A stretch of 64,000 bases of DNA from an uncultured bacterium (GCA_937930175.1 CALGLP010000018.1:14193-78192); one strand, 5' to 3'; counted from the first letter of the stretch, positions 6,319 through 19,105 are shown. The notes: generated by a model from the sequence alone, not told the origin. Translations and numbers: made by a program.

Positions 6319-8001
6319 ATGATGAAAGAAAATTCTTTTTCGAAACACGTTAAGAAGTTTACTTTTCTTTCTCTTCTCTTGTTTTGTGCCCTTTCTTTAA
6401 GCATTCCTAAGACATCTCAAGCCGAAGCATCGTCATCAGATGTTATCTGTGGCGCTTATCTGACAGGTATCGGTTGCAGTAATTGTGCGGTCATCGATCC
6501 CATGTTGTTTCATGAAATTGTGACGAAGTACCCGCAAGCTATTATTTTGGAATACGAAATCTATCATGCAAGCAAAGAAAACGAACAAATCAAAGCAGAT
6601 TATTTTAAAAACTTTTTTCCGGGTCAACCGATTGGTGTTCCTGCGTTTATTTTAAACAATACAACCAAGGCTGTAGGGCGTATTAAGGTAGCAGACCTGT
6701 TGTCGGGTTTTGATAAGATTGTATCAAACGCCTGTCCGATGTCAGATGGGACGGTTAAAGATCTTCAAACGCTTGATTTAACCACGCTTTCGGGAAAGAT
6801 TAATATTTGGACCAAGAACCGTGTTTTATCAACGGATAGAGCCGGCGGAGATAATCGCATCTTAAAAGAACTCTTGCTAGAGACTAATATATGGAAAGTT
6901 TTAAAGGGCATTCCGTATGAAAAAATAGAGCCAGTACCGGTTGAGATTTCGCAAAATGTCATCACTTTTCAATATGCTGTACGTATTGGCAGTTGGACGT
7001 TGCAATGGAATGAATATGCGCCAGGAAGCCCGCAAAATTCATCGAGAAAAGTCGGTGGGGCGATTGTCCAAATATTTTTAGCCCTTGTCGGGATTCTTGT
7101 TCTCGTCGCACTTTTAAAGATTGAAAAAACGTCTAAGGGTTACGGACTTAGGATGCGTAATTTTGGAAAAAAGCAGAAAGATTATGCCTTTGTCGCACTC
7201 GCGGTTGTTGGGCTCGGTGCGTTCTTTATTTTTGCCAAGAGTTTGAATCCTGCGGCCCTTGAAAAAGCAGGTTATTATTTACCTTTGCCCATCTTTACTT
7301 TGATTATTGGCTTCATTGATGGATTTAATCCATGCAACATGTTTGTTCTCACTTGCTTGATGGCGCTTTTGGTTTCAAGTTCTGATTCCAAAATGCGGCT
7401 TTATGTTGTTGGGATCACATTTGTGGGAACAGTGTTTGTGCTTTATTTTCTATTTATGGCAGCCTGGCTGAATGTGTTTCAGTATGTCAATTTTATTACA
7501 CCACTGCGTATTGGCATTGGTCTTTTGTCGCTCATAGCAGGCTTGATTAATTGCAAAGAGCTTTTATTTTTCAAAAAGGGTATTAGCCTGACAATCCCCA
7601 ATGAACAAAAAGGCCCATTGATGAAAAAGATTTATGCCATGAAAGCTGCTATTCAGAAAGGCTCTTTTCCAGTCTTGATTTCCTCCGCGTTTGCCTTGGC
7701 GATCCTGTCGTCCCTTGTTGAAATTCCATGTACCGCGGGATTTCCGATCATTTACACAGGAATTCTTTCGGGCAAAGTTTTTGAAAATTCTTTTGTCTAT
7801 TATGTGTATTTAGCATTTTACAATATTCTTTATGTTCTGCCGCTTTTCGTCATTGTGACCATGTTTATCGTCACTTTTAAAGGCGCGCCGATTTCTCAAC
7901 GACAAATGGAAATCCTAAAATTTATCGGTGGGATCATCATGATCCTTTTAGGTATTGTTCTTTTAGTTAATCCAAGCTTGGTTGGCGTAAATATGGGCTA
8001 A
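6319..8001 (+). CDS. thiol:disulfide interchange membrane protein: N-terminal periplasmic thioredoxin-like CxxC domain fused to a CcdA/DsbD-type transmembrane domain
   Basis: Signal peptide. GIGCSNCAV CxxC in a thioredoxin-like beta-alpha-beta context. C-terminal half is polytopic with FNPCNMFVL and EIPCTAGFP, resembling the two conserved TM cysteines of CcdA/DsbD (xPC motifs). Confidence 0.55.
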   Translation: MMKENSFSKHVKKFTFLSLLLFCALSLSIPKTSQAEASSSDVICGAYLTGIGCSNCAVIDPMLFHEIVTKYPQAIILEYEIYHASKENEQIKADYFKNFFPGQPIGVPAFILNNTTKAVGRIKVADLLSGFDKIVSNACPMSDGTVKDLQTLDLTTLSGKINIWTKNRVLSTDRAGGDNRILKELLLETNIWKVLKGIPYEKIEPVPVEISQNVITFQYAVRIGSWTLQWNEYAPGSPQNSSRKVGGAIVQIFLALVGILVLVALLKIEKTSKGYGLRMRNFGKKQKDYAFVALAVVGLGAFFIFAKSLNPAALEKAGYYLPLPIFTLIIGFIDGFNPCNMFVLTCLMALLVSSSDSKMRLYVVGITFVGTVFVLYFLFMAAWLNVFQYVNFITPLRIGIGLLSLIAGLINCKELLFFKKGISLTIPNEQKGPLMKKIYAMKAAIQKGSFPVLISSAFALAILSSLVEIPCTAGFPIIYTGILSGKVFENSFVYYVYLAFYNILYVLPLFVIVTMFIVTFKGAPISQRQMEILKFIGGIIMILLGIVLLVNPSLVGVNMG

Positions 8002-8232: not shown

Positions 8233-8300
8233 ATTAGCTCACATGGTAGAGCAAGTGACTCTTAATCACTGGGTAGCAGGTTCGATTCCTGCATGGCCCA
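8228..8300 (+). tRNA. tRNA-Lys (anticodon CUU)
   Basis: Manual fold gives a 73-nt cloverleaf: acceptor GGGCCAT/ATGGCCC, D-arm GCTC-ACATGGTA-GAGC, anticodon stem AGTGA/TCACT with loop CTCTTAA (anticodon CTT), T-arm GCAGG-TTCGATT-CCTGC, discriminator A. CCA is not encoded. Confidence 0.85.
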
Positions 8301-8352
8301 TGAATATTTTTCATGGTCATCTTTTAAGGGGGAGTTTGTGCAAGATCAAAAA

Positions 8353-9159
8353 ATGGATGTCGCTGCATTTAAAGCTAAGGCAGTAACGTTTCGAAAGCAA
8401 ATTCTTGAAATGACCCATATGGCTGGCTCGGGTCATCCGGGTGGCTCTCTTTCCGCAGTTGAAATTCTCATCAGCCTGTATTGCTATAAAATGCGTCACA
8501 AGCCGCAAGAACCTCATTGGGCCAATCGTGATCGTCTTATTATTTCCAAAGGTCATGCATCACCTGTTGTTTATGTTGCTTTAGCGGATAGTGGCTATTT
8601 TCCCAAAGAAGAGCTTGGTACGTTTCGTAAATTAGGGGCAAGGCTTCAAGGTCATGTTCATCGTAAGGTTCCAGGTGTTGAGCTTAATACCGGTTCCTTA
8701 GGCCATGGTCTTTCCGTTGCCAACGGCATGGCTTTAGCAGCAAGGTTGCAAAATAAAGATTTTAAGGTTTACTGTCTCATGGGCGATGGAGAGATTCAAG
8801 AAGGTTCGGTTTGGGAAGCAGCCATGAGTTCAGCGCATTACAAGCTTCATAATGTCTGTGCAATTATTGATTATAATAAAGTTCAAGAAAACGGTCCTGT
8901 GAGCGAGATCATGAACCTTGAGCCTTTAGCCGATAAATGGAGAAGCTTTGGCTGGGAAGTTATCGAAGCTGATGGCCATGATTTTGATGAGCTTAAAAAA
9001 GCCCTGGATGGATTTGATGCAGCGAAAAAGCCTTATGTGATTATTGCGCACACAGCAAAGGGCAAGGGTATTTCCTTTATGGAAGGGAAATCGAAATGGC
9101 ATGGCAAGGCGCCGAATAAAGAGGAATTATCTACTGCTTTAAAGGAGCTTGAAGGTTAG
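8353..9159 (+). CDS. transketolase, N-terminal (TPP-binding) subunit of a split transketolase
   Basis: HMAGSGHPGGSLS..GHASP..GSLGHGLS..GDGE TPP-binding blocks; about 270 aa. Alternative GTG start at 8338 is closer to the AGGGGGAG SD. Confidence 0.85.
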   Translation: MDVAAFKAKAVTFRKQILEMTHMAGSGHPGGSLSAVEILISLYCYKMRHKPQEPHWANRDRLIISKGHASPVVYVALADSGYFPKEELGTFRKLGARLQGHVHRKVPGVELNTGSLGHGLSVANGMALAARLQNKDFKVYCLMGDGEIQEGSVWEAAMSSAHYKLHNVCAIIDYNKVQENGPVSEIMNLEPLADKWRSFGWEVIEADGHDFDELKKALDGFDAAKKPYVIIAHTAKGKGISFMEGKSKWHGKAPNKEELSTALKELEG

Positions 9160-9169
9160 GAGAAATGAT

Positions 9170-10108
9170 ATGAACGCAACGCCTACCCGAGATGGTTTTG
9201 GAGTGGAATTAACGGCTCTTGGAAATGAGCGTAAAGATATTGTCGTTGTTTCGGCGGATCTCGAGGATGCCACGCGAGCGGAATTCTTTAAAAAAGAATT
9301 CCCTGATCGTTTTTTTACTGTAGGTATCGCAGAGCAGGACATGGTTGGCACCGCGGTAGGGCTAGCGCTGGAAGGATTTGTTGTCTTTGCGTCTTCTTTT
9401 GCTGTGTTTATGACCAATCGTGCTTATGATATGATCCGTATTGATGTTTGTCAAAACAACGCCAATGTGAAGATCGTTTGTTCTCATGCGGGCATCACGG
9501 TTGGGGAAGACGGGTCAACTGCGCAGTGCCTCGAAGATCTTGCGATCATGAGGGTTTTACCTAACATGACGGTCCTGTGTCCTGTGGATACGATTGAAGC
9601 TAAGAAAGCCACGCGATGGATGGCCAACAATTATGGGCCTTTTTATATGCGCACGAGTCGATCCGCAGTTCCTGTGATTACCGCTGAGGCTGATCCTTTC
9701 GTTGTGGGAAAAGCCAACGTAATGCGCGAAGGTAAGGATGTCACGATCATTGCCTGTGGCCTGATGGTTTCTGAATCTTTGCAGGTCGCGGAAATGCTAA
9801 AAAAAGAGGGTATTGATGCCCGCGTTGTGAATATGCATACCATTAAACCGATCGATATTCAAATGATTGTTGAAAGTGCTAAGCAAACGAAAGCGATTGT
9901 GACTGCGGAAGAGCATCAAATCATGGGTGGGCTGGGAAGTGCTGTTTGTGAAGCATTGGCTCAAAATTATCCTGTTCCTGTTGAGATGATCGGCATGAAT
10001 GATGCCTATGGCGAAACAGGGGATCCTGAAGGCTTGCTTAAGAAATATCATATGAAAGATAGGGATATCGCACAAGCTGTTAAAAGGGTGATTAAGCGTA
10101 AGATATAA
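9170..10108 (+). CDS. transketolase, C-terminal (pyrimidine-binding + C-terminal domain) subunit
   Basis: Follows the N-terminal subunit with RBS AGGAGA, 7 nt spacing. FGVEL..GIAEQDMVG..A block typical of transketolase pyrimidine-binding domain; about 313 aa. Confidence 0.85.
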   Translation: MNATPTRDGFGVELTALGNERKDIVVVSADLEDATRAEFFKKEFPDRFFTVGIAEQDMVGTAVGLALEGFVVFASSFAVFMTNRAYDMIRIDVCQNNANVKIVCSHAGITVGEDGSTAQCLEDLAIMRVLPNMTVLCPVDTIEAKKATRWMANNYGPFYMRTSRSAVPVITAEADPFVVGKANVMREGKDVTIIACGLMVSESLQVAEMLKKEGIDARVVNMHTIKPIDIQMIVESAKQTKAIVTAEEHQIMGGLGSAVCEALAQNYPVPVEMIGMNDAYGETGDPEGLLKKYHMKDRDIAQAVKRVIKRKI

Positions 10109-10132
10109 AGATTATTAATCTGCGAAATGATC

Positions 10133-10172
10133 GGGCAGCTTTTTCTAATGAAAAAGCTGCCCTTTTCTATTT
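10133..10172 (+). terminator. Rho-independent terminator after the transketolase genes
   Basis: gggcagcttttt / ctaatg / aaaaagctgccc perfect 12-bp stem followed by ttttctattt. Confidence 0.8.
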
Positions 10173-10249
10173 ACTTCAGCACTTTGAAAACTAAAGAAAA
10201 TCAAAGTAATTTATAAAGGACATGATAAAATAATGCAAAAGGAAATTCA

Positions 10250-10840
10250 ATGAGCAAGAAAATACGATCAATTTATATCTTTTTACTGATTCTTGGTATT
10301 ACATGTTTGGGCTGTGCGGATAAGCGGCCAAAATATAAGAATTTGGAGTTTGAATTCTTTCTTCATTATAATCCAACTTGGGAAATGAAAGAGCGCGTTG
10401 ACTCGGCCGTTGTCGCTTTTCTTGCGCCTCAAGCGGATAAACTTGATTTCTTTCAAGAAACCATGACGATTACCATTGATGATTTGCTTAAGCCCGTTAC
10501 TCTTGCCCAATATACAGAGGCTGTGCAAGCACAAGTTAAAGCTATGGGCACCATGAAGGATGTCACGTTAAATGTGATCGAGACAAAACCACTAAAGATT
10601 TCTGGTAAGGCTGGTCATCAAATCGTTTACACCTTAACGCAATATGGCAATCCGCAAGAGCTTGTGGATCAAGGCCTGGCTCCACGCATTGATGCCCAAG
10701 GGGAAACCATCCAGATCAGGCTAGCTTGGACGATCAGGGAAAATAGGGTCTATCTTTTTACCTACGTAGCGCAAAGGGATAGCTATGCTACGTTTATCAC
10801 TGATGTTGATGCGATGATTCAATCCTTTAGATTTCTCTAG
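10250..10840 (+). CDS. hypothetical lipoprotein
   Basis: Signal peptide with lipobox LGC|ADK (ITCLGCADKRP); no recognisable enzymatic motif. Confidence 0.5.
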   Translation: MSKKIRSIYIFLLILGITCLGCADKRPKYKNLEFEFFLHYNPTWEMKERVDSAVVAFLAPQADKLDFFQETMTITIDDLLKPVTLAQYTEAVQAQVKAMGTMKDVTLNVIETKPLKISGKAGHQIVYTLTQYGNPQELVDQGLAPRIDAQGETIQIRLAWTIRENRVYLFTYVAQRDSYATFITDVDAMIQSFRFL

Positions 10841-10851
10841 GCTTAAACCTT

Positions 10852-11571
10852 ATGAAAGAATGCTCATCCTGCCATATTTTCTTTAAAGAATCTGTGATGC
10901 AATGTCAAGGATGCGGCGAAACGTTGAAAGAGATCACTCTCGGAGAAGCTCTCGAGCATACCCGCAAAAGATTTCTCAAGCATTTTAGTGAAGACAAAAG
11001 TGTTCACATCTTTGATCCGCACACCCAATATGTAGTCAGCAGTTATTTCAATAATCATTCACTTTTTCTTTATTTTGACCTCAGTAAAAATCAGCTTAAA
11101 TACGGTCGTCATTTCGAACGATTTTTTATCCAACCTATTAATCTGACGGCTTTTATCAACATTCCGTGGTTTTTTTATAATCTCCTCTATACTAATTATT
11201 TTCATTTTTTTTATAATCGGTATTGTCCTGTTTGTAATTGCAAGCATCTCGAGGGCCATCATTCGCAAGAGGAATGCGAGTACAACAAGATTTATTTTCA
11301 GATTCTTTGCGATGTCTTAAATGGCGATATTGTGAACACGAAGAAGGTGTACGAGGAGTATTATCAGGAAAATAAAAATTTGCAAATACCTAACGCTTTT
11401 GCGAATTTAAGCAAGCGGCATAAGCGTGCAGAGTTTGCCCTTGACTTATTGTCCATTAGTTTATCGATTTTGGCGTGGATGTATGTGATGGTTTATGTTG
11501 GGTTCCCGATGGGAAAGAGTCTAATGCTCAAATTACAATTTCTGGATGCCTATGAGTGGCGTCTTTTTTAA
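10852..11571 (+). CDS. hypothetical zinc-ribbon protein with C-terminal membrane anchor
   Basis: CSSC..CQGC at the N-terminus and CPVCNC..H in the middle (two putative Zn-ribbons); one hydrophobic helix near the C-terminus (LLSISLSILAWMYVMVYVGF). Confidence 0.45.
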   Translation: MKECSSCHIFFKESVMQCQGCGETLKEITLGEALEHTRKRFLKHFSEDKSVHIFDPHTQYVVSSYFNNHSLFLYFDLSKNQLKYGRHFERFFIQPINLTAFINIPWFFYNLLYTNYFHFFYNRYCPVCNCKHLEGHHSQEECEYNKIYFQILCDVLNGDIVNTKKVYEEYYQENKNLQIPNAFANLSKRHKRAEFALDLLSISLSILAWMYVMVYVGFPMGKSLMLKLQFLDAYEWRLF

Positions 11572-11588
11572 CCTAAAATATTAATACA

Positions 11589-13670
11589 ATGCTCCTGACA
11601 AATTATTACAATAATTTTAATTTCTTGCGCCAGATCCCTCTTTTTTCAAAGTTGAATTGGCTTGAGCTTCATTTTATTTCAAGTAAGGTTGAGTTAAAAG
11701 AATATAAAAAAGGTGATGTTATTTATCGTCAAGGGGAGCCTGCAGACGCGTTTTATTGTTTGGTTTCAGGCCGCCTTCTGGCATATTTAACAAATGCGCA
11801 AGGCCATCATCATCACGTGGAATACCTTTATCGGGGGATGTATTTTGGTATCGTTTCTCTCTTGACGGGTGAGTCACACTCGTTAAATTTTGAAGCCCTC
11901 AATGATTCTTTCATTTTGCGAATCTCCAAAGAGCATTTCGATGCCATTTTAAAAAAGATTCCACGGCTTGGCATTGAGCTTAGTTATAGCCTATCGCGTC
12001 GCATTCGCAAACAAGAGGGACGTGAGAAATTTATTCTGGAAAGTAATATTATTGCTGTCTATAGTCCTTTTCATGGGCTTGGAAGCTCTTTTTACGCGTT
12101 TAATCTTGCCCTGCATCTCAAGCGAGAAACAAAGAAGAAAGTCTTATTTGTCGATTTGTTTCGAACCAACGACGCCAAGACCTTGAAAGAATTTGCTACA
12201 GATTTTTCGCCAGCTTGGAAAAAAGACCCTTTGAGCCTCGACGGAGTTATGGATCATAAAGATTTACTCATGAAATCAATTTCTGTTACTCAAGACGGCC
12301 TGGATCTTTTGAATGTTTATTTTGAATCAAAGACACGTGATCTTGCGACCTATATTAGCGAATTTGTCACTACCTTGGCCCATGACTATCATTATATTAT
12401 TTTGGATTTGCCCAATAGCGCCGATGATCTTGTTTTTAAAACGTTAACTCAATGCGATGATATTCATCTTGTTTTGGGATCTCAGCCCGATGAAATCGTG
12501 GAGGCCAAAGAGATCATTACACGCCTGCAAGGGGCGTTTCCGCAATCGGTGCGTCAAGAGCGCTTAAAACTTCTTGTCCGTGAATTTGATCTTAAATCAA
12601 GCACTACGCTGCAAGAATTAACAAAGATTTTTGATTACCCGATCTATGCGAAATTGCCTCAAGTGATTTCTGGAGAAGGCAAAGAGCTTTTATCCTTGGC
12701 GCAAATGGATATTTTCTTGCCTACGGAAGATACTCTTTATTTTCAGCGCATGCGGCGCCTTGCGCGGGAAGTGGCTAAGACGCAGATTGGCCTTGTTTTA
12801 GGCGGGGGAGCTTCTTTTGGTTTGTCACTGATCGGTGTCTTGCGGGTTTTAGAAAAAGAAAAGATCCCCGTTGATGTTTTGGCTGGAAGCAGTATTGGCG
12901 CCTTGATCGGCGGACTTTGGGCGCTTGGGTTTACGGCGGATGAAATTGCAAAGTTTGCACAAGAGTTTCGATCGAAATTTTATTGTTTAAATCTCTTGGA
13001 CATTGTTTTTCCGCGATCTGGGCTTATTGGCGGTCATAACATTCGTCGGTGGTTGCGTAAACGCATTGGCCGGCGCCAATTTTCAGAAACACGCATTCCT
13101 TTAAAGATCGTGGCGTATGATTTAGCTCGGCGTGAAGATTTGATTATTGACGAGGGGGATGTCGTGGATGCGATTTGCCAGAGTATTGGTATTCCAGGGT
13201 TTATTCGTCCGATCCTGCGTGATGGCCGCGTCATTATTGATGGAGGAATCATTAATCCCTTGCCTACCAATGTGCTAACAGCCCTGGGTATTCAGAAAAT
13301 CATCGCGGTTAACATCATGAAATCTCCTGATGACATTGTCAAAGATATGGCGATTGCACGTCAAGAGCAAGAGGTGCTAGCGAAAACGTGTTTTAAGGAT
13401 TCACCAATTATCTTTCTAAAGAATAAAATGGTTCATTTTTTTCAACATCTCTGGACACCAAACATTTTTGATATTATTGTCAAAAGTCTTCAGGCTGCGG
13501 GTCATGTTTTGGCGGAGCAGAGTGCAGCGCAATCGGATGTCCTCATCCATCCGGACTTAACAGGTATTGATTGGTATGAATTATACAAGGTGGACAAGCT
13601 TATTGAATCAGGAGAGAAGGCCGCGCAAGCCAAGAAAGAAGAACTCGTGGCTCTAATAACACGCACATAG
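11589..13670 (+). CDS. three-domain protein: N-terminal cyclic-nucleotide-binding (CAP effector) domain, central degenerate MinD/ParA-fold domain, C-terminal patatin-like phospholipase
   Basis: cNMP block FYCLVSGRL..GMYFGIVSLLTGESHS. Middle region aligns to MinD (NIIAVYSPFHGLGSS vs IIVVTSGKGGVGKT; YHYIILDLPNSA vs FIVCDSPAG) but Walker-A Lys/Thr are lost. Patatin GGGASFG oxyanion motif and GSSIG nucleophile elbow, plus IDGG (Asp of the dyad). Confidence 0.7.
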   Translation: MLLTNYYNNFNFLRQIPLFSKLNWLELHFISSKVELKEYKKGDVIYRQGEPADAFYCLVSGRLLAYLTNAQGHHHHVEYLYRGMYFGIVSLLTGESHSLNFEALNDSFILRISKEHFDAILKKIPRLGIELSYSLSRRIRKQEGREKFILESNIIAVYSPFHGLGSSFYAFNLALHLKRETKKKVLFVDLFRTNDAKTLKEFATDFSPAWKKDPLSLDGVMDHKDLLMKSISVTQDGLDLLNVYFESKTRDLATYISEFVTTLAHDYHYIILDLPNSADDLVFKTLTQCDDIHLVLGSQPDEIVEAKEIITRLQGAFPQSVRQERLKLLVREFDLKSSTTLQELTKIFDYPIYAKLPQVISGEGKELLSLAQMDIFLPTEDTLYFQRMRRLAREVAKTQIGLVLGGGASFGLSLIGVLRVLEKEKIPVDVLAGSSIGALIGGLWALGFTADEIAKFAQEFRSKFYCLNLLDIVFPRSGLIGGHNIRRWLRKRIGRRQFSETRIPLKIVAYDLARREDLIIDEGDVVDAICQSIGIPGFIRPILRDGRVIIDGGIINPLPTNVLTALGIQKIIAVNIMKSPDDIVKDMAIARQEQEVLAKTCFKDSPIIFLKNKMVHFFQHLWTPNIFDIIVKSLQAAGHVLAEQSAAQSDVLIHPDLTGIDWYELYKVDKLIESGEKAAQAKKEELVALITRT

Positions 13671-13705
13671 TATAAATAAAAATTTGTAACGAGGGAGTGT
13701 CTACG

Positions 13706-14740
13706 ATGAAAAGAGTTCAAACAAAGATTATCTGCACCTTGGGGCCAGCGAGCTCAACACGAGGAATTCTCCTGAAGATGATTCGCTCTGGGATGGATGT
13801 TGCGCGTCTAAATTTTTCTCATGGAACGCATCAGAGCCATGCTGAAAGCATTCGTCTTATCCGCCAGATCAACCAAGCTTATCGACGCAATGTTAAGCTG
13901 CTTCAAGATCTTGAAGGATTTCGTATTCGCATCGGCCATCTTAATCAATGGCCTAATAGTGTTGTTGTTTTGAAAAAACATCAAATCGTCACTCTTTCTA
14001 ATAATCCTAAATATTTTAAGTCGGGTGTTATTCCTTTTGATTACGAGGGAGCGCTTAGGGTGATCACGCCAGGACGTCATATCTATATTGATGATGGCAA
14101 TATCGCTCTTGTCGTGAAGCATACGTTTAAGAATTATTTGCAAGCGTTTGTTGAGGTGGCAGGCACAATCAAGGAGCATAAGGGGATCAATATTCCTGAT
14201 GTTAAGTTACGTTTTACCGGAATGACTTCAAAAGATCAGCAAGATCTTCTTTTTGGTATCGCGAACCATGTTGATTTTATTGCGCAATCATTTGTTCGCA
14301 CTCAACAAGACCTTTTGGCGGTTCGTAAGGTCCTTTTAAAATATCATTCTAAGGCAAAGCTTATTGCTAAGATTGAAAATCAAGAGGGTGTTGATAACAT
14401 CGATTCTATTTTATTAGCTTGTGACGGGGTGATGATCGCGCGAGGGGATCTTGGGGTTTGCTTACCGATTTATGAAATTCCTTTTTTGCAGAAAATGCTT
14501 ATAAAAAAATGTAAAGCGCGAGGCAAATTTGTGATCACCGCAACGCAGATGCTTGAAAGCATGACCGAGCGCTTGAGGCCAACACGTGCCGAAGTGACTG
14601 ATGTTGCCAATGCGATCATTGATGGCACCGATTATACGATGCTTTCGGCCGAGAGCGCGGCCGGACGCTATCCTGTCGAGTCTGTTGAGATGATGAATGA
14701 TATTTGCAAGTACACCGAACAATATTTAGCGAAGACGTAA
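13706..14740 (+). CDS. pyk: pyruvate kinase, catalytic core only (no C-terminal regulatory domain)
   Basis: [45 protein letters not shown] motifs all present. ORF ends about where the A domain ends (about 345 aa) and the next gene starts 20 nt later. RBS GAGGGAG, 8 nt spacing. Confidence 0.8.
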
Positions 14741-14760
14741 TAACTCCAAGAAGGATTCTC

Positions 14761-15123
14761 ATGAACGTCGCTGTCGTTGGAGCCTCCGATAAGACTGATC
14801 GCTATTCTTATCAGGCGTTTAAATTGCTTCAAGAAAAAGGCCACCGCGTCTTTGGCGTTCATCCGCGGATTAAAAATATTGATGGTCAGCGTATTTATTC
14901 TTCGCTTGAGGCGATCACGGAACCTATTGATGTCATTACTTTGTATGTTTCTTCAGATGTTTCTACAAAAATCGCTTTAGCCATTTTGGCTAAATCCCCA
15001 AAGAAGATTATCTTTAATCCAGGAACTGAAAACCTTGTGCTTGAGCGCTTAGGTCATGATAAGGGCATTGATGTCATTCGCGCTTGTACACTAGTTCTCT
15101 TGAAGACAGGACAATTTTCATAG
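14761..15123 (+). CDS. CoA-binding domain protein (YccU-like)
   Basis: MNVAVVGASDKTDRYSYQAFKLL..G..V..V.P N-terminal Rossmann-like CoA-binding signature; about 120 aa. Confidence 0.6.
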   Translation: MNVAVVGASDKTDRYSYQAFKLLQEKGHRVFGVHPRIKNIDGQRIYSSLEAITEPIDVITLYVSSDVSTKIALAILAKSPKKIIFNPGTENLVLERLGHDKGIDVIRACTLVLLKTGQFS

Positions 15124-16085: not shown

Positions 16086-16718
16086 ATGAAATCTATTGTG
16101 TTTCCAGCTATGTCGGTTTTACCAAATATCCCTAACATCTATCATGCCTTAGGTTATTTAAAGGAAAAAACGCTTGTTAAAGGTGTTTTAGGCAAAGAGA
16201 TCAATCGCTATATTGAAGAAGCTCAGGGGTTTATTGAGCTTAAAGGGACGGCCTTGCGCTTGAATGTCATAGAGATTGCCCACGAGCAAATTCTTTTAAA
16301 AAATAAAACAATCTTTAAAAGCGCTGCGCTTGCCAAATTTTTAAAGGGCTCAACGCAAGTCCTTTTGTTTGGGGCAACGGCGGGCCAAGCGATTATGGAT
16401 GTCATTGCGCAAAAATCAAAGGAACAAGATTTAACGCGTGCGGTTGTGTACAATGCTGTGGCCGGTGAGATGGCTGACGAGGCGTTGACGTGGATTGGTC
16501 AATATATGCATCAGCAGCTTCTTCGCGAAGGCCTTGCCTTGGATAATCGTCGGTTTTCAGCTGGCTACGGAGATTTTAATATTGAATATCAAAAGGTTTT
16601 TTGGGAGCTTCTCAATTTAAAAGATATTGGCGTTTCGATAACAAAGGCATCTCTTCTTGTCCCGGAAAAATCCGTCACAGCGCTTTCTGGAATCCGCGCA
16701 TCAAAATCATCGCAATGA
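16086..16718 (+). CDS. methionine synthase activation (AdoMet-binding/reactivation) domain, stand-alone
   Basis: About 210 aa protein immediately upstream of, and translationally coupled (ATGA) to, a MetH core that lacks this domain. Length and position are consistent with the Met_synt_B12 activation module being split off. Confidence 0.55.
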   Translation: MKSIVFPAMSVLPNIPNIYHALGYLKEKTLVKGVLGKEINRYIEEAQGFIELKGTALRLNVIEIAHEQILLKNKTIFKSAALAKFLKGSTQVLLFGATAGQAIMDVIAQKSKEQDLTRAVVYNAVAGEMADEALTWIGQYMHQQLLREGLALDNRRFSAGYGDFNIEYQKVFWELLNLKDIGVSITKASLLVPEKSVTALSGIRASKSSQ

Positions 16719-19105
16719 AGAATATAATTAAAAAACGTTTAGCCAAAAAATTCTTGATCCTCGATGGAGCTACAGGAACAGAGCTTCAAAAGCGTGGCAT
16801 GCCTCAGGGTGCCTGTCCCGAAAAATGGTGTCTTGACAACCCTGCGGCCATTGCGCAAGTTTCCAGAGATTACGTCCACAGTGGATCAGATATTATTTAT
16901 ACCTGCACGTTTGGTGGCAATCCTTATAAACTTAAAGAATATGGCATCTTCGATGTCGAAGCGGTGAATGAGCGCCTTGCGCGCATCGCTAAGAAAAGCG
17001 TTGGTCCGTCCATTCTTGTTGCAGGCGATATCGGACCCACAGGAGCGTTTATTGAACCCTTCGGGCCTATAAAATTTGATGATGCCGTTGATTCTTTCAA
17101 GCGTCAGGTCAAGGGGCTTTTAAACGGTGGTGTTGATTTATTTGTGATCGAAACCATGATGGACATCCAGGAAGCCCGCGCTGCGCTTATCGCCGTCAAG
17201 GAAATGACCAACAAGTTTGTTATGGTCACGATGACGATTGAAAAGAATGGTCGCACATTAAACGGCACAGACCCGATCACCGCGCTTATCACGCTACAGA
17301 GTCTTGGTGCGGATGCCGTGGGGTGCAATTGTTCAGCGGGCCCTAAGGAAATGGACCGTTTTATCAAAGCCATGAAGCCTTTTGCCATGGTGCCCATTGT
17401 CGCTAAGCCCAATGCTGGTCTGCCAAAGCTTATCCACGGGTCCACAGTTTTTGATATGACACCACAACAATTTGCTCGACATGCTAAAGATATCGCCAAG
17501 CATGGCGCTAACATTCTTGGCGGTTGTTGCGGAACAACGCCTGAGCATATTCAAGCATTGAAAAAGGTTCTGGCTGACATTAAGCCTCAGCCCGTTCAAA
17601 GAACATCCTTGAGCGCTTTGACATCGGCCAGGGCTTATGTGCTCATTGACAAACATCAAAAACCTTTGATCATTGGCGAATCCATTAATCCCACCCGGCG
17701 AAAGGCCTTGCAGCAGGAACTTTTGGACGAAAAAACCGCGCTTGTTCGCGAACTTGCTAAGACTCAAGAGTTTGATGGGGCAGAACTCCTTGATGTTAAT
17801 GTTGGCGCCCCAGGTGTTGATGAAAAAAAAGCCCTGCCAAAAGTCTTGGGCGCGCTATCTATCTTCTCATCACTTCCGCTTGTTATTGACTCATCAGATA
17901 TAGTCGCTTTGGAAAAGGCACTACGCCTTTATCCGGGCCGCGCGCTTATCAATTCCATTTCGGCGGAAAAGAAAATGCAGCCACTTCTTAAGCTTGCGTC
18001 CCAATATGGCGCTATGTTTATTGCCTTGCCGCTAAGCCATAAAGGGGTCCCTAAAACTTTTCTCGAACGAAAGAAAAATATTTTAACACTCATCCATGCG
18101 GCAAGAAAACAGGGGATCGCAAAAGCAAATATCGTCATTGATGCCTTAACGATGGCTGTGTCTTCGCTTCCCAAGGCAGGCTTTGAGACCCTTCAAACAG
18201 TTCGTTTTTGTTCACATCATTTGAAATGTCCTACGGTCGTCGGGCTTTCTAATATTTCTTTTGGCCTTCCTGAGCGCGCTTTGCTGAATGGGACCTTCTT
18301 TGCTTTATTAAAAAAACAAGGTTTAACGATGGCCATTGCCAATCCAGGACATTTAAAAGAAGCACGAAACAAAGAAGCTCAAAATCTTTTATTAAATCGA
18401 GATAAAGAAGCCAGAGATTATATTGCCTATTGCACTAAAGAAAAACCGCATGCTCCCAATGAAAAGGCGATTGTCTCATCACCCAAGGATTTAGTTTATA
18501 ATGCGGTTCTCGACGGCAATCGTGAACAAATTAAAGAGTTTATCATCATGGCAGAAAACGAGGGGATGAGCGCTGAAAAGATTGTGCATGAGGTCATGAT
18601 CCCAGCGATTAACAAGGTCGGGGAATTCTTTGAACAAAAGCGTTATTTCCTACCTCAACTGGTTGCCAGCGCTGAAGCCATGAATAGGGCCTTTGATTAT
18701 CTGGAGCCTAAACTTGCTAAAAAAGTGATGGGTGATATTCCGAAAACAGTTGTAATTTTGGCAACCGTCAAAGGCGATATCCACGATATCGGCAAAAATA
18801 TTGTTGCGCTGATGCTTAAAAATCATGGATTTCAGGTTGTGGATCTTGGCCGCGATGTTTCAGCGATACGGATTTTACATGCGATCAAGGAACATAAGAG
18901 TCCAATCGTCGGACTCTCAGCCCTCATGACAACAACCATGGTCAATATGCCTGAAGTGATCACCTTAGCTAAGGAACAACATTTACAATGCCGTTTTATG
19001 CTTGGCGGTGCTGTGGTGACCAAAGATTATGCTCAAAGTCTTGGGGCGGAATATTCTAAAGATGGTGTTGAGGCGGTTTCCGTGGCCAAACGGCTTAGCC
19101 AATAA
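16715..19105 (+). CDS. metH: methionine synthase MetH core (Hcy-binding, pterin-binding, B12-binding domains; no activation domain)
   Basis: LILDGATGTELQ (Hcy S-methyltransferase), IIGESINPT (pterin-binding), GDIHDIGKNIV (DxHxxG cobalamin motif) followed by a B12-binding Rossmann domain. ATG overlaps the upstream stop. Confidence 0.9.
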   Translation: MKNIIKKRLAKKFLILDGATGTELQKRGMPQGACPEKWCLDNPAAIAQVSRDYVHSGSDIIYTCTFGGNPYKLKEYGIFDVEAVNERLARIAKKSVGPSILVAGDIGPTGAFIEPFGPIKFDDAVDSFKRQVKGLLNGGVDLFVIETMMDIQEARAALIAVKEMTNKFVMVTMTIEKNGRTLNGTDPITALITLQSLGADAVGCNCSAGPKEMDRFIKAMKPFAMVPIVAKPNAGLPKLIHGSTVFDMTPQQFARHAKDIAKHGANILGGCCGTTPEHIQALKKVLADIKPQPVQRTSLSALTSARAYVLIDKHQKPLIIGESINPTRRKALQQELLDEKTALVRELAKTQEFDGAELLDVNVGAPGVDEKKALPKVLGALSIFSSLPLVIDSSDIVALEKALRLYPGRALINSISAEKKMQPLLKLASQYGAMFIALPLSHKGVPKTFLERKKNILTLIHAARKQGIAKANIVIDALTMAVSSLPKAGFETLQTVRFCSHHLKCPTVVGLSNISFGLPERALLNGTFFALLKKQGLTMAIANPGHLKEARNKEAQNLLLNRDKEARDYIAYCTKEKPHAPNEKAIVSSPKDLVYNAVLDGNREQIKEFIIMAENEGMSAEKIVHEVMIPAINKVGEFFEQKRYFLPQLVASAEAMNRAFDYLEPKLAKKVMGDIPKTVVILATVKGDIHDIGKNIVALMLKNHGFQVVDLGRDVSAIRILHAIKEHKSPIVGLSALMTTTMVNMPEVITLAKEQHLQCRFMLGGAVVTKDYAQSLGAEYSKDGVEAVSVAKRLSQ

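Follow-up and report, generated by a model that had tools for sequence, protein, structure and literature searches.

Within 64,000 nucleotides of DNA from an uncultured bacterium (GCA_937930175.1 CALGLP010000018.1:14193-78192; we call this whole stretch the window, and count all positions from its first letter), a gene at 11589-13670 on the plus strand encodes a 693-residue protein that joins three domains: a sensor of the cyclic nucleotide monophosphate (cNMP)-binding fold, a middle domain with the fold of the ParA/MinD ATPases and, last, a patatin lipase. What might a lipase do with an ATPase fold whose P-loop has lost its lysines, and what would the sensor at the other end be sensing? Our answer, which we think somewhat probable, is that the three-domain protein is a regulated, cytoplasmic Ser-Asp lipid acyl-hydrolase of the RssA/NTE branch, vertically inherited in Candidatus Omnitrophota, in which a sensor would act by way of a pseudo-ATPase scaffold on lipid turnover. 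The structural and evolutionary description of this family is well supported; its mechanism is one that we infer.

In that mechanism, the sensor would bind a small ligand (not cyclic AMP or cyclic GMP, cAMP and cGMP, in the canonical mode) or would serve as a regulatory module that needs no ligand at all. The pseudo-ATPase would be a rigid element for dimerisation or scaffolding that relays the state of the sensor to the hydrolase, a relay that we have modelled on the pairing of a receiver (REC) domain with an atypical ATPase in CpaE/TadZ. The hydrolase would then turn over membrane or stored lipid, and the fatty acids set free could, in many genomes, feed the products of adjacent genes for an acyl-CoA dehydrogenase, FadB and an acyl-CoA synthetase. 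Automated annotation has already recognised the parts of this protein. We found no paper on the three-domain family, and a literature search for the architecture or for lipases of Omnitrophota returned nothing specific.

Three domains in one polypeptide

The order of sensor, ParA-like domain and patatin is as the initial annotation of this DNA had claimed, and a full-length AlphaFold 2 model of the protein has a mean predicted local distance difference test score (pLDDT) of 85.7 and a predicted template modelling score (pTM) of 0.80. The hydrolase module takes up residues 397-693 (12777-13667; all features of this gene lie on the plus strand). Pfam Patatin (PF01734) matches residues 402-563 with E=1.2e-29 and 104.3 bits, against a gathering cutoff of 27.7, and the module has the patatin alpha/beta fold. 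The intact dyad and oxyanion loop that had been claimed for it are there: a glycine-rich oxyanion loop, LGGGASFG (residues 404-411; 12798-12821), a nucleophile elbow, GSSIG (residues 433-437, with Ser435; 12885-12899), which aligns with GTSMG of PlpD, and a catalytic aspartate motif, IDGG (residues 550-553, with Asp551; 13236-13247). Throughout 118 homologs, G407, G411, G433, S435, G437 and D551-G-G are invariant, and the catalytic module is, as predicted from these motifs, complete.

Which patatin is it? The NCBIfam RssA model NF007623 is spanned almost from end to end (residues 397-691 on model positions 3-298 of 301, E=4.9e-37), and its score of 127.7 bits is so far under the equivalog cutoff of 272 that we call the module RssA-like and not an RssA ortholog. 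PlpD is the sole solved patatin that a sequence search reached (E=1.1e-26), and its secreted patatin domain is the best match by structure as well, with VipD also matched. Beyond this module the three part ways: RssA/YchK has just one domain, and in PlpD the patatin is accompanied by a POTRA/beta-barrel part for secretion, whereas the window protein has its three domains. Kinship with secreted enzymes invites the thought that the protein is turned outward, a phospholipase directed at host or prey cells in the way of ExoU, VipD or PlpD. We consider this very unlikely, for the protein has no signal peptide, transmembrane (TM) segment or autotransporter/translocator domain, its N-terminal regulatory domains are of a cytoplasmic type, and no secretion genes recur in the gene neighbourhoods described below.

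One residue of the hydrolase deserves mention by itself. Just before the last glycine of the oxyanion loop (residue 410; 12816-12818), the window protein has Phe and 107 of the 118 homologs have Leu, so that the three-domain family differs here from PlpD, which has Arg. Leu also occupies the matching position in lipases of neutral lipids, ATGL among them, and the Phe or Leu of the family may be a hint at substrate preference.

The sensor (residues 8-143; 11610-12017) is of the cNMP-binding fold, with a Pfam cNMP_binding (PF00027) match over residues 37-123 (E=1.1e-19, 70.6 bits against a cutoff of 27.5) and the expected beta-roll. It had been taken for a canonical domain of the CAP family, and that it is not. 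In HMMER alignments to PKG and PKA, its phosphate-binding cassette, FGIVSLLTGESHS (residues 86-98; 11844-11882), is non-canonical: where those kinases have the FGE Glu it has Ile88, and where they have Arg-[Ser/Thr] it has His97-Ser98. Not one of the 118 homologs has Glu at position 88; at position 97, 117 of them have His and none has Arg. The His-Ser pair is found in about 50 of 54 divergent full-length three-domain representatives, and the His in 76 of 77 members from genome loci. Because His-Ser is nearly universal across the family, we argue that the pocket has been selected and has not randomly decayed. In other words, the sensor pocket, as read from sequence, is a conserved variant specific to this family, with a hydrophobic residue or Glu, plus His-Ser where others have Arg-Ser/Thr.

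The closest characterised architecture is that of the eukaryotic proteins NTE/PNPLA6/SWS (the last of them Swiss-cheese of Drosophila), which likewise place one or more cNMP-binding-fold domains N-terminal to a patatin esterase of the RssA/YchK type. NTE is anchored by an N-terminal TM segment, carries three cyclic-nucleotide-binding (CNB) domains and is not known to contain a ParA-like domain. In layout, the window protein differs in that it is soluble, has one CNB domain and holds a pseudo-ParA domain between sensor and esterase. The layout of the human disease protein NTE/PNPLA6, in which CNB and RssA-type patatin are joined, exists, that is, as a soluble bacterial protein with a single CNB domain and a sharply conserved non-canonical pocket, and experiments on such a protein could get at what CNB domains do in this class of lipases.

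Might the sensor bind a cyclic nucleotide all the same? A true cyclic-nucleotide-gated lipase, whose His-type cassette binds cAMP, cGMP or another cyclic (di)nucleotide supplied by a cyclase encoded elsewhere, strikes us as possible and, on balance, unlikely. The fold is strong, His-Ser is kept at the site of phosphate contact in a pocket under selection, and a two-domain relative with a canonical cassette is encoded near a CHASE2-cyclase gene. In SWS/NTE, moreover, the CNB sites matter for catalysis, being required for phospholipase function, with their ligand unresolved (PMC12710771). Two points also weigh against the reading that we prefer: His97 and Ser98 could still bind a cyclic phosphate, and about half of the 54 divergent representatives keep the FGE Glu. 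Against gating stand the missing Arg for the cyclic phosphate in about 50 of those 54 (with His instead in nearly all close homologs), the missing Glu throughout the crown clade to which the window protein belongs, and the failure of a single-sequence phmmer search, which has limited sensitivity, to detect a class III cyclase anywhere in the window or at 80 related loci.

A bolder idea is that the His-Ser cassette defines a new ligand class of the cNMP-binding fold, a metabolite or a non-canonical nucleotide in place of cAMP or cGMP, and that the whole protein is an allosteric lipase switch, used phylum-wide, in which a dead ParA dimer passes ligand occupancy on to the NTE-type esterase. We think this unlikely. 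Were it true, the protein would offer a tractable bacterial model for the function of the CNB domains in NTE/PNPLA6, and also a dated example of a P-loop ATPase becoming a pseudo-enzyme scaffold, with GK[ST] in the deep lineages and GSS in the crown.

Even the recognition of the middle domain (residues 146-396; 12024-12776) takes some effort, since its Pfam matches are all faint: AAA_31 stays below threshold, with 25 bits where 27 are needed, and ParA and BcsQ match weakly. Yet a profile of residues 146-396 built on 20 sequences matches the Protein Data Bank (PDB) entry 3ea0, a "ParA family ATPase" of Chlorobium tepidum, at E=5.4e-13 and near full length, followed by PF-32, ParA, Soj and MinD. 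A stand-alone model of the domain (pLDDT 89.9, pTM 0.90) leads Foldseek to the same 3ea0 (E=1.5e-13), and its top 50 matches are all of the MinD/ParA/NifH class, including FlhG, FleN and TadZ (3fkq). Since profile, model and Foldseek matches agree, the ParA/MinD fold first proposed for this segment is correct.

What has happened to its P-loop? The Walker A loop, YSPFHGLGSSF (residues 158-168; 12060-12092), is degenerate and has neither the signature lysine nor the lysine of GK[ST]; the lysine-less PFHGLGSS singled out at the start is residues 160-167, and it does lie at the Walker A position. In the 118 close homologs, this position reads Y-S-P-x-x-G-x-G-S-S-T, with V, F or I at the signature-lysine site and, at the GK[ST] site, Ser in 103 and Lys in none. 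A Walker B or switch-II-like strand, YIILDLP (12393-12413), is retained, and S167, D273, P275, Q288 and D290 are invariant. At the switch-I Asp site, most of the 118 homologs have Asn (64) or Ser (29) and only 10 have Asp; the window protein has Asp, as D189. Because both lysines are lost throughout the crown clade, its P-loop should be unable to act as that of a MinD-type ATPase, and such an ATPase cycle is, to judge from the residues left, not credible there, which bears out the initial view that the domain is probably not an ATPase.

Descent of the family and decay of its P-loop

Where did such a domain come from? We searched 1.84 billion representative proteins exhaustively with a hidden Markov model (HMM) profile of the middle domain. 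At E<=1e-30 it matched 35 clusters, and relaxing the threshold to 1e-10 and then to 1e-3 raised the number to 343 and 3605. The best 150 matches comprise 61 three-domain proteins and 67 with the ParA-like domain only, the rest being fragments or two-domain forms. Most of the ParA-only proteins are about 380-430 residues long and have the layout of CpaE/TadZ, with AAA_31 behind a receiver-like domain, and it is these REC + AAA_31 proteins that are the nearest relatives outside the three-domain family.

The P-loops of this out-group nearly always retain KGG, often without the second lysine (KGGTGAT, KGGAGAS, KGGSGST). Within the three-domain family, the second lysine site is Lys in 17, Arg in 11 and something else in 26 of the 54 full-length representatives. 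A deep Omnitrophota clade (loci L069, L075, L078, L080 and L070) has AGKT, AGKS or VGKT, and the crown clade, including the window protein, has GxGSS. Because deep members of Omnitrophota retain GK[ST], the lysine-less loop is derived within the phylum; the middle domain stems from the CpaE/TadZ branch, and its Walker A lysine was lost within Omnitrophota. We thus have a natural series, with the P-loop intact in deep lineages and without its lysine in the crown, and with the adjoining lipase invariant, that should be useful for studying how ATPases become pseudo-enzyme scaffolds.

CpaE/TadZ (3ea0, 3fkq) gives the best profile and fold match for the middle domain, and the likeness extends to a regulatory domain of some 140 residues at the N terminus, to the place of the ATPase fold behind it and to the frequent loss of the GK[ST] lysine. 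The differences are as plain. CpaE/TadZ proteins have a REC-like N-terminal domain, keep the lysine of the KGG signature, have no lipase and sit in Tad pilus loci, whereas the three-domain protein has an N-terminal domain of the cNMP-binding fold, has lost the signature lysine and has no tad genes nearby, either in the window or among recurrent neighbours.

These relatives prompt the question of whether the ParA-like domain is still a nucleotide switch, one that binds ATP or ADP without the help of lysine and, by dimerising, places the lipase at the membrane or at a cell pole. Its closest relatives are of the CpaE/TadZ type, many of them also lacking the GK[ST] lysine, and TadZ is reported to bind ATP through its deviant Walker A in order to dimerise, not to do work (as cited in PMC13170226). 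The five invariant residues and the GK[ST] of the deep clade speak for a switch too, and, to the detriment of the scaffold that we prefer, the lysine-less loop could still bind nucleotide, given S167 and D273. We nevertheless regard a surviving nucleotide switch as improbable. The crown clade lacks both lysines, whereas the out-group nearly always has KGG; the switch-I Asp position is Asn or Ser in 93 of 118 homologs; and the lysine site varies so freely across the family (the counts are those given above) that nucleotide chemistry would seem dispensable.

The family that this scaffold belongs to is a large one. There are at least 724 homologs, nearly all of about 690 residues, and those with a named source all come from Candidatus Omnitrophota; the names given to homologs at the Joint Genome Institute (JGI) include "NTE family protein" and "RssA/BcsQ". 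When one genome per GTDB species was scanned, a relative turned up in at least 395 of these species representatives. The best 80 are all full length and share 36-79% identity, and almost every one bears the label Omnitrophota. A few contigs of metagenome-assembled genomes (MAGs) bear the labels "Planctomycetales", "Lysobacterales" or "Elusimicrobia", which we take as noise of labelling or binning. Among ten divergent cluster members, the sole named one is again from Omnitrophota. The gene is, in short, vertically inherited and lineage-wide in Omnitrophota.

The sensor-ParA-patatin architecture, then, does recur, and it recurs across a phylum. The initial annotation had also said that this is not a standard housekeeping protein, and there we have to disagree: the match to the RssA model, the JGI labels and the spread over at least 395 genomes together describe what is essentially a widespread housekeeping family of the NTE/RssA-like kind. 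For Omnitrophota, which are uncultured, this flags a near-universal and uncharacterised gene that may join lipid hydrolysis to beta-oxidation.

Some observations on single relatives belong here. Loci L057 and L059 looked like paralogs, a reading we rejected because they are contigs of one MAG whose members are 95.4% identical; they are most likely a strain-level duplication within the bin. P0227 (locus L081, 8001-9239) is the two-domain relative mentioned above. Like P0259, whose layout is similar, it has the sensor-ATPase cassette of the three-domain protein, and both pass the Pfam thresholds for cNMP_binding and AAA_31. It differs in having a canonical cassette (FGEMAL...RNA), an intact KGGVGKS in its ParA/CpaE-like domain and no patatin, and a co-oriented CHASE2-Guanylate_cyc gene (L081, 12658-14649) lies 3.4 kb downstream of it, among radical-SAM genes. 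P0227 may be a cNMP-controlled ParA-like switch. In P0211 (716 aa), a CpaE-like ParA domain (5-241) is fused to a secretion ATPase of the T2SSE/CpaF type (360-638); CpaE-like and CpaF-type partners are normally separate proteins in Tad systems.

Gene neighbourhoods and the lipid link

For the surroundings of the gene, we clustered all open reading frames (ORFs) from the loci of the best 80 of the at least 395 relatives, together with the window. The neighbours are always co-oriented strings of core-metabolism genes. In the commonest of these, the genes upstream are, in order, FadB-like, a PsbP-fold lipoprotein homologous to the window's 196-aa protein, a RumA/TrmA-like methyltransferase, a small DUF1636 protein and an ACAD9/VLCAD-like acyl-CoA dehydrogenase (ACAD), then comes the three-domain gene, and it is followed by a HemC-CobA-HemD fusion, HemB, HemL, a DUF3568 lipoprotein and a cupin. 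Other clades have LeuCD-AroC and a short-chain dehydrogenase/reductase (SDR), response regulators or a beta-glucosidase upstream.

It is the genes of fatty acid oxidation that have caught our attention. Among the 65 loci whose upstream sequence reaches 2 kb or more, 27 have an ACAD9/VLCAD-like dehydrogenase directly upstream, and 33 of 77 loci include ACAD or FadB. The association reaches, in differing gene orders, into deep clades: FadB and ACAD precede the three-domain gene in L070, and a response regulator and ACAD precede it in L071. In the deep-branching L072 (4567-10702), the three-domain gene is followed by genes for 3-hydroxyacyl-CoA dehydrogenase, enoyl-CoA hydratase and a 659-aa AMP-binding enzyme that resembles acyl-CoA synthetases. 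This recurrent context suggests, and does no more than suggest, a lipase that feeds beta-oxidation.

Several facts count against such a link. Heme-biosynthesis genes, found downstream in 32 of 77 loci, match the upstream beta-oxidation genes in frequency; unrelated genes, where they stand upstream, are no less tightly packed; and neither ACAD nor FadB is encoded in the window. We had thought of the tight spacing of ACAD and patatin genes as evidence for an operon, and have down-weighted it because those unrelated genes are just as tight. Persistent heme genes and equal packing together mean that the apparent link to lipid catabolism may be inherited gene order.

The same neighbourhoods bear on a very different idea, put forward with the initial annotation: that the protein is a signalling or defence effector comparable to the patatins activated by cyclic nucleotides. 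In its full form, this would make the protein a Pycsar/CBASS-like effector of phage defence or abortive infection, in which a cyclic-nucleotide sensor governs a patatin phospholipase that destroys membranes. There is a likeness, for Pycsar and CBASS effectors (PycTIR/PycTM, CapV, CapE) also set a nucleotide-sensing domain over a destructive effector, and the CNB and patatin folds are matched structurally. The HMM scores are weak, however: the best PADLOC match is at E=1.2e-6, to the CNB part only and so at the level of a domain, and the NCBIfam model CBASS_lipase scores 13 bits against a cutoff of 200. PlpD and RssA are far closer than CapV or CapE, and the cNMP cassette is non-canonical. No cyclase partner was found in the window or the 80 loci, and no CD-NTase appears among the annotated recurrent neighbour clusters (no search was aimed at CD-NTases); in place of a defence island, the window gene is surrounded by tkt, PsbP-like, Zn-ribbon, pyk and CoA-binding genes, and its relatives sit in conserved core-metabolism strings inherited across a phylum.

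Because the domain matches are weak, no partner cyclase was found in the loci searched, the context is core metabolism, inheritance is phylum-wide and the cNMP-contact residues are gone, we disfavour defence and hold it to be extremely improbable. There is a caution in this for annotation, since the presence of a CNB domain and a patatin is insufficient for a Pycsar/CBASS-like label. To judge from its sequence and gene context, the three-domain protein is not an effector of that kind, nor is it an RssA equivalog, a functional MinD/ParA ATPase or a CpaE/TadZ protein.

The locus and its flanks

In the window, the three-domain gene is the last of three co-oriented ORFs, which are present as first described. 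A lipoprotein gene of 196 codons (10250-10840, plus strand) is followed, after a gap of 11 nt, by a Zn-ribbon-like gene of 239 codons (10852-11571, plus strand) and then, after 17 nt, by the three-domain gene. A split transketolase (8293-9159 and 9149-10108) flanks the group upstream and a pyruvate kinase gene (13697-14740, plus strand; Pfam PK, E=2.9e-115) downstream, so that the setting between tkt and pyk, too, is as originally reported. The 64-kb window also encodes FBA, MetH, citrate synthase and aconitase.

Only one of the two terminators once placed around these genes is there. A strong intrinsic terminator at 10133-10162 (plus strand; a 13-bp stem with 7 GC pairs, then TTTTCTATTT), 3' of the transketolase genes, is the upstream limit of the transcription unit. 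No terminator lies between the TAG stop at 13670 and the start of pyk at 13697; the 26-nt gap holds a ribosome-binding site, GAGGGA, and the tight string of genes runs on past pyk. With no terminator after the three-domain gene and a ribosome-binding site in so short a gap, the transcription unit probably extends beyond three genes, and pyk is probably co-transcribed with the lipase gene. There is, besides, a hairpin with a 7-bp stem and a T-run at 11544-11564 (plus strand), within the 3' end of the Zn-ribbon gene and about 25 nt ahead of the start of the three-domain gene; this terminator-like element could weaken the coupling between the lipase gene and the two genes ahead of it. An Rfam match to BTnc231, a small RNA of Bacteroides (10132-10234, minus strand; 33.8 bits against a gathering cutoff of 80.4, E=2.6e-4), we dismissed because it is sub-threshold and overlaps the terminator hairpin, which probably drives it.

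Nor are the three genes a conserved cluster, as had been supposed. The lipoprotein gene has a homolog upstream in 31-33 of 77-80 loci, mostly 2-4 genes off, and the Zn-ribbon/TM gene is found in only 5 of 80 related loci, those of the closest relatives (L001-L004 and L010), so that the three-gene cluster is specific to one clade and the Zn-ribbon gene is a clade-specific insertion. The 196-aa product has a signal peptide with Cys19 and Cys22. The window copy is sub-threshold for PsbP_2/DcrB, and all seven of the seven homologs tested pass Pfam PsbP; it is a PsbP-fold lipoprotein or membrane-anchored protein, and a loosely linked neighbour. In the 239-aa protein, CxxC pairs stand at residues 4-7, 18-21 and 125-128 and a single C-terminal TM segment spans 199-220; no Pfam or NCBIfam family matched it.

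A few features farther out may be set down here. The pyruvate kinase, of 347 aa, consists of the barrel domain PF00224 alone, without the C-terminal PK_C, and its gene overlaps the next one, for a CoA_binding_2 protein (14704-15123). MetH is apparently split: an ORF of 210 codons at 16086-16718 (plus strand), with a weak match to the Met_synt_B12 activation domain, overlaps the MetH core at 16601-19105 (plus strand; 834 aa, with S-methyl_trans, Pterin_bind and B12-binding domains) that follows it. At 6319-8001 (plus strand), there is a gene whose 560-aa product bears a signal peptide; GIGCSNC (a thioredoxin-like CxxC) lies in its N-terminal part, and GFNPCNMF, a motif that resembles DsbD/CcdA, in its multi-TM C-terminal part. 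No Pfam family matched this protein below E=0.01, and a homolog of it is kept upstream of tkt in loci L002, L003 and L010.

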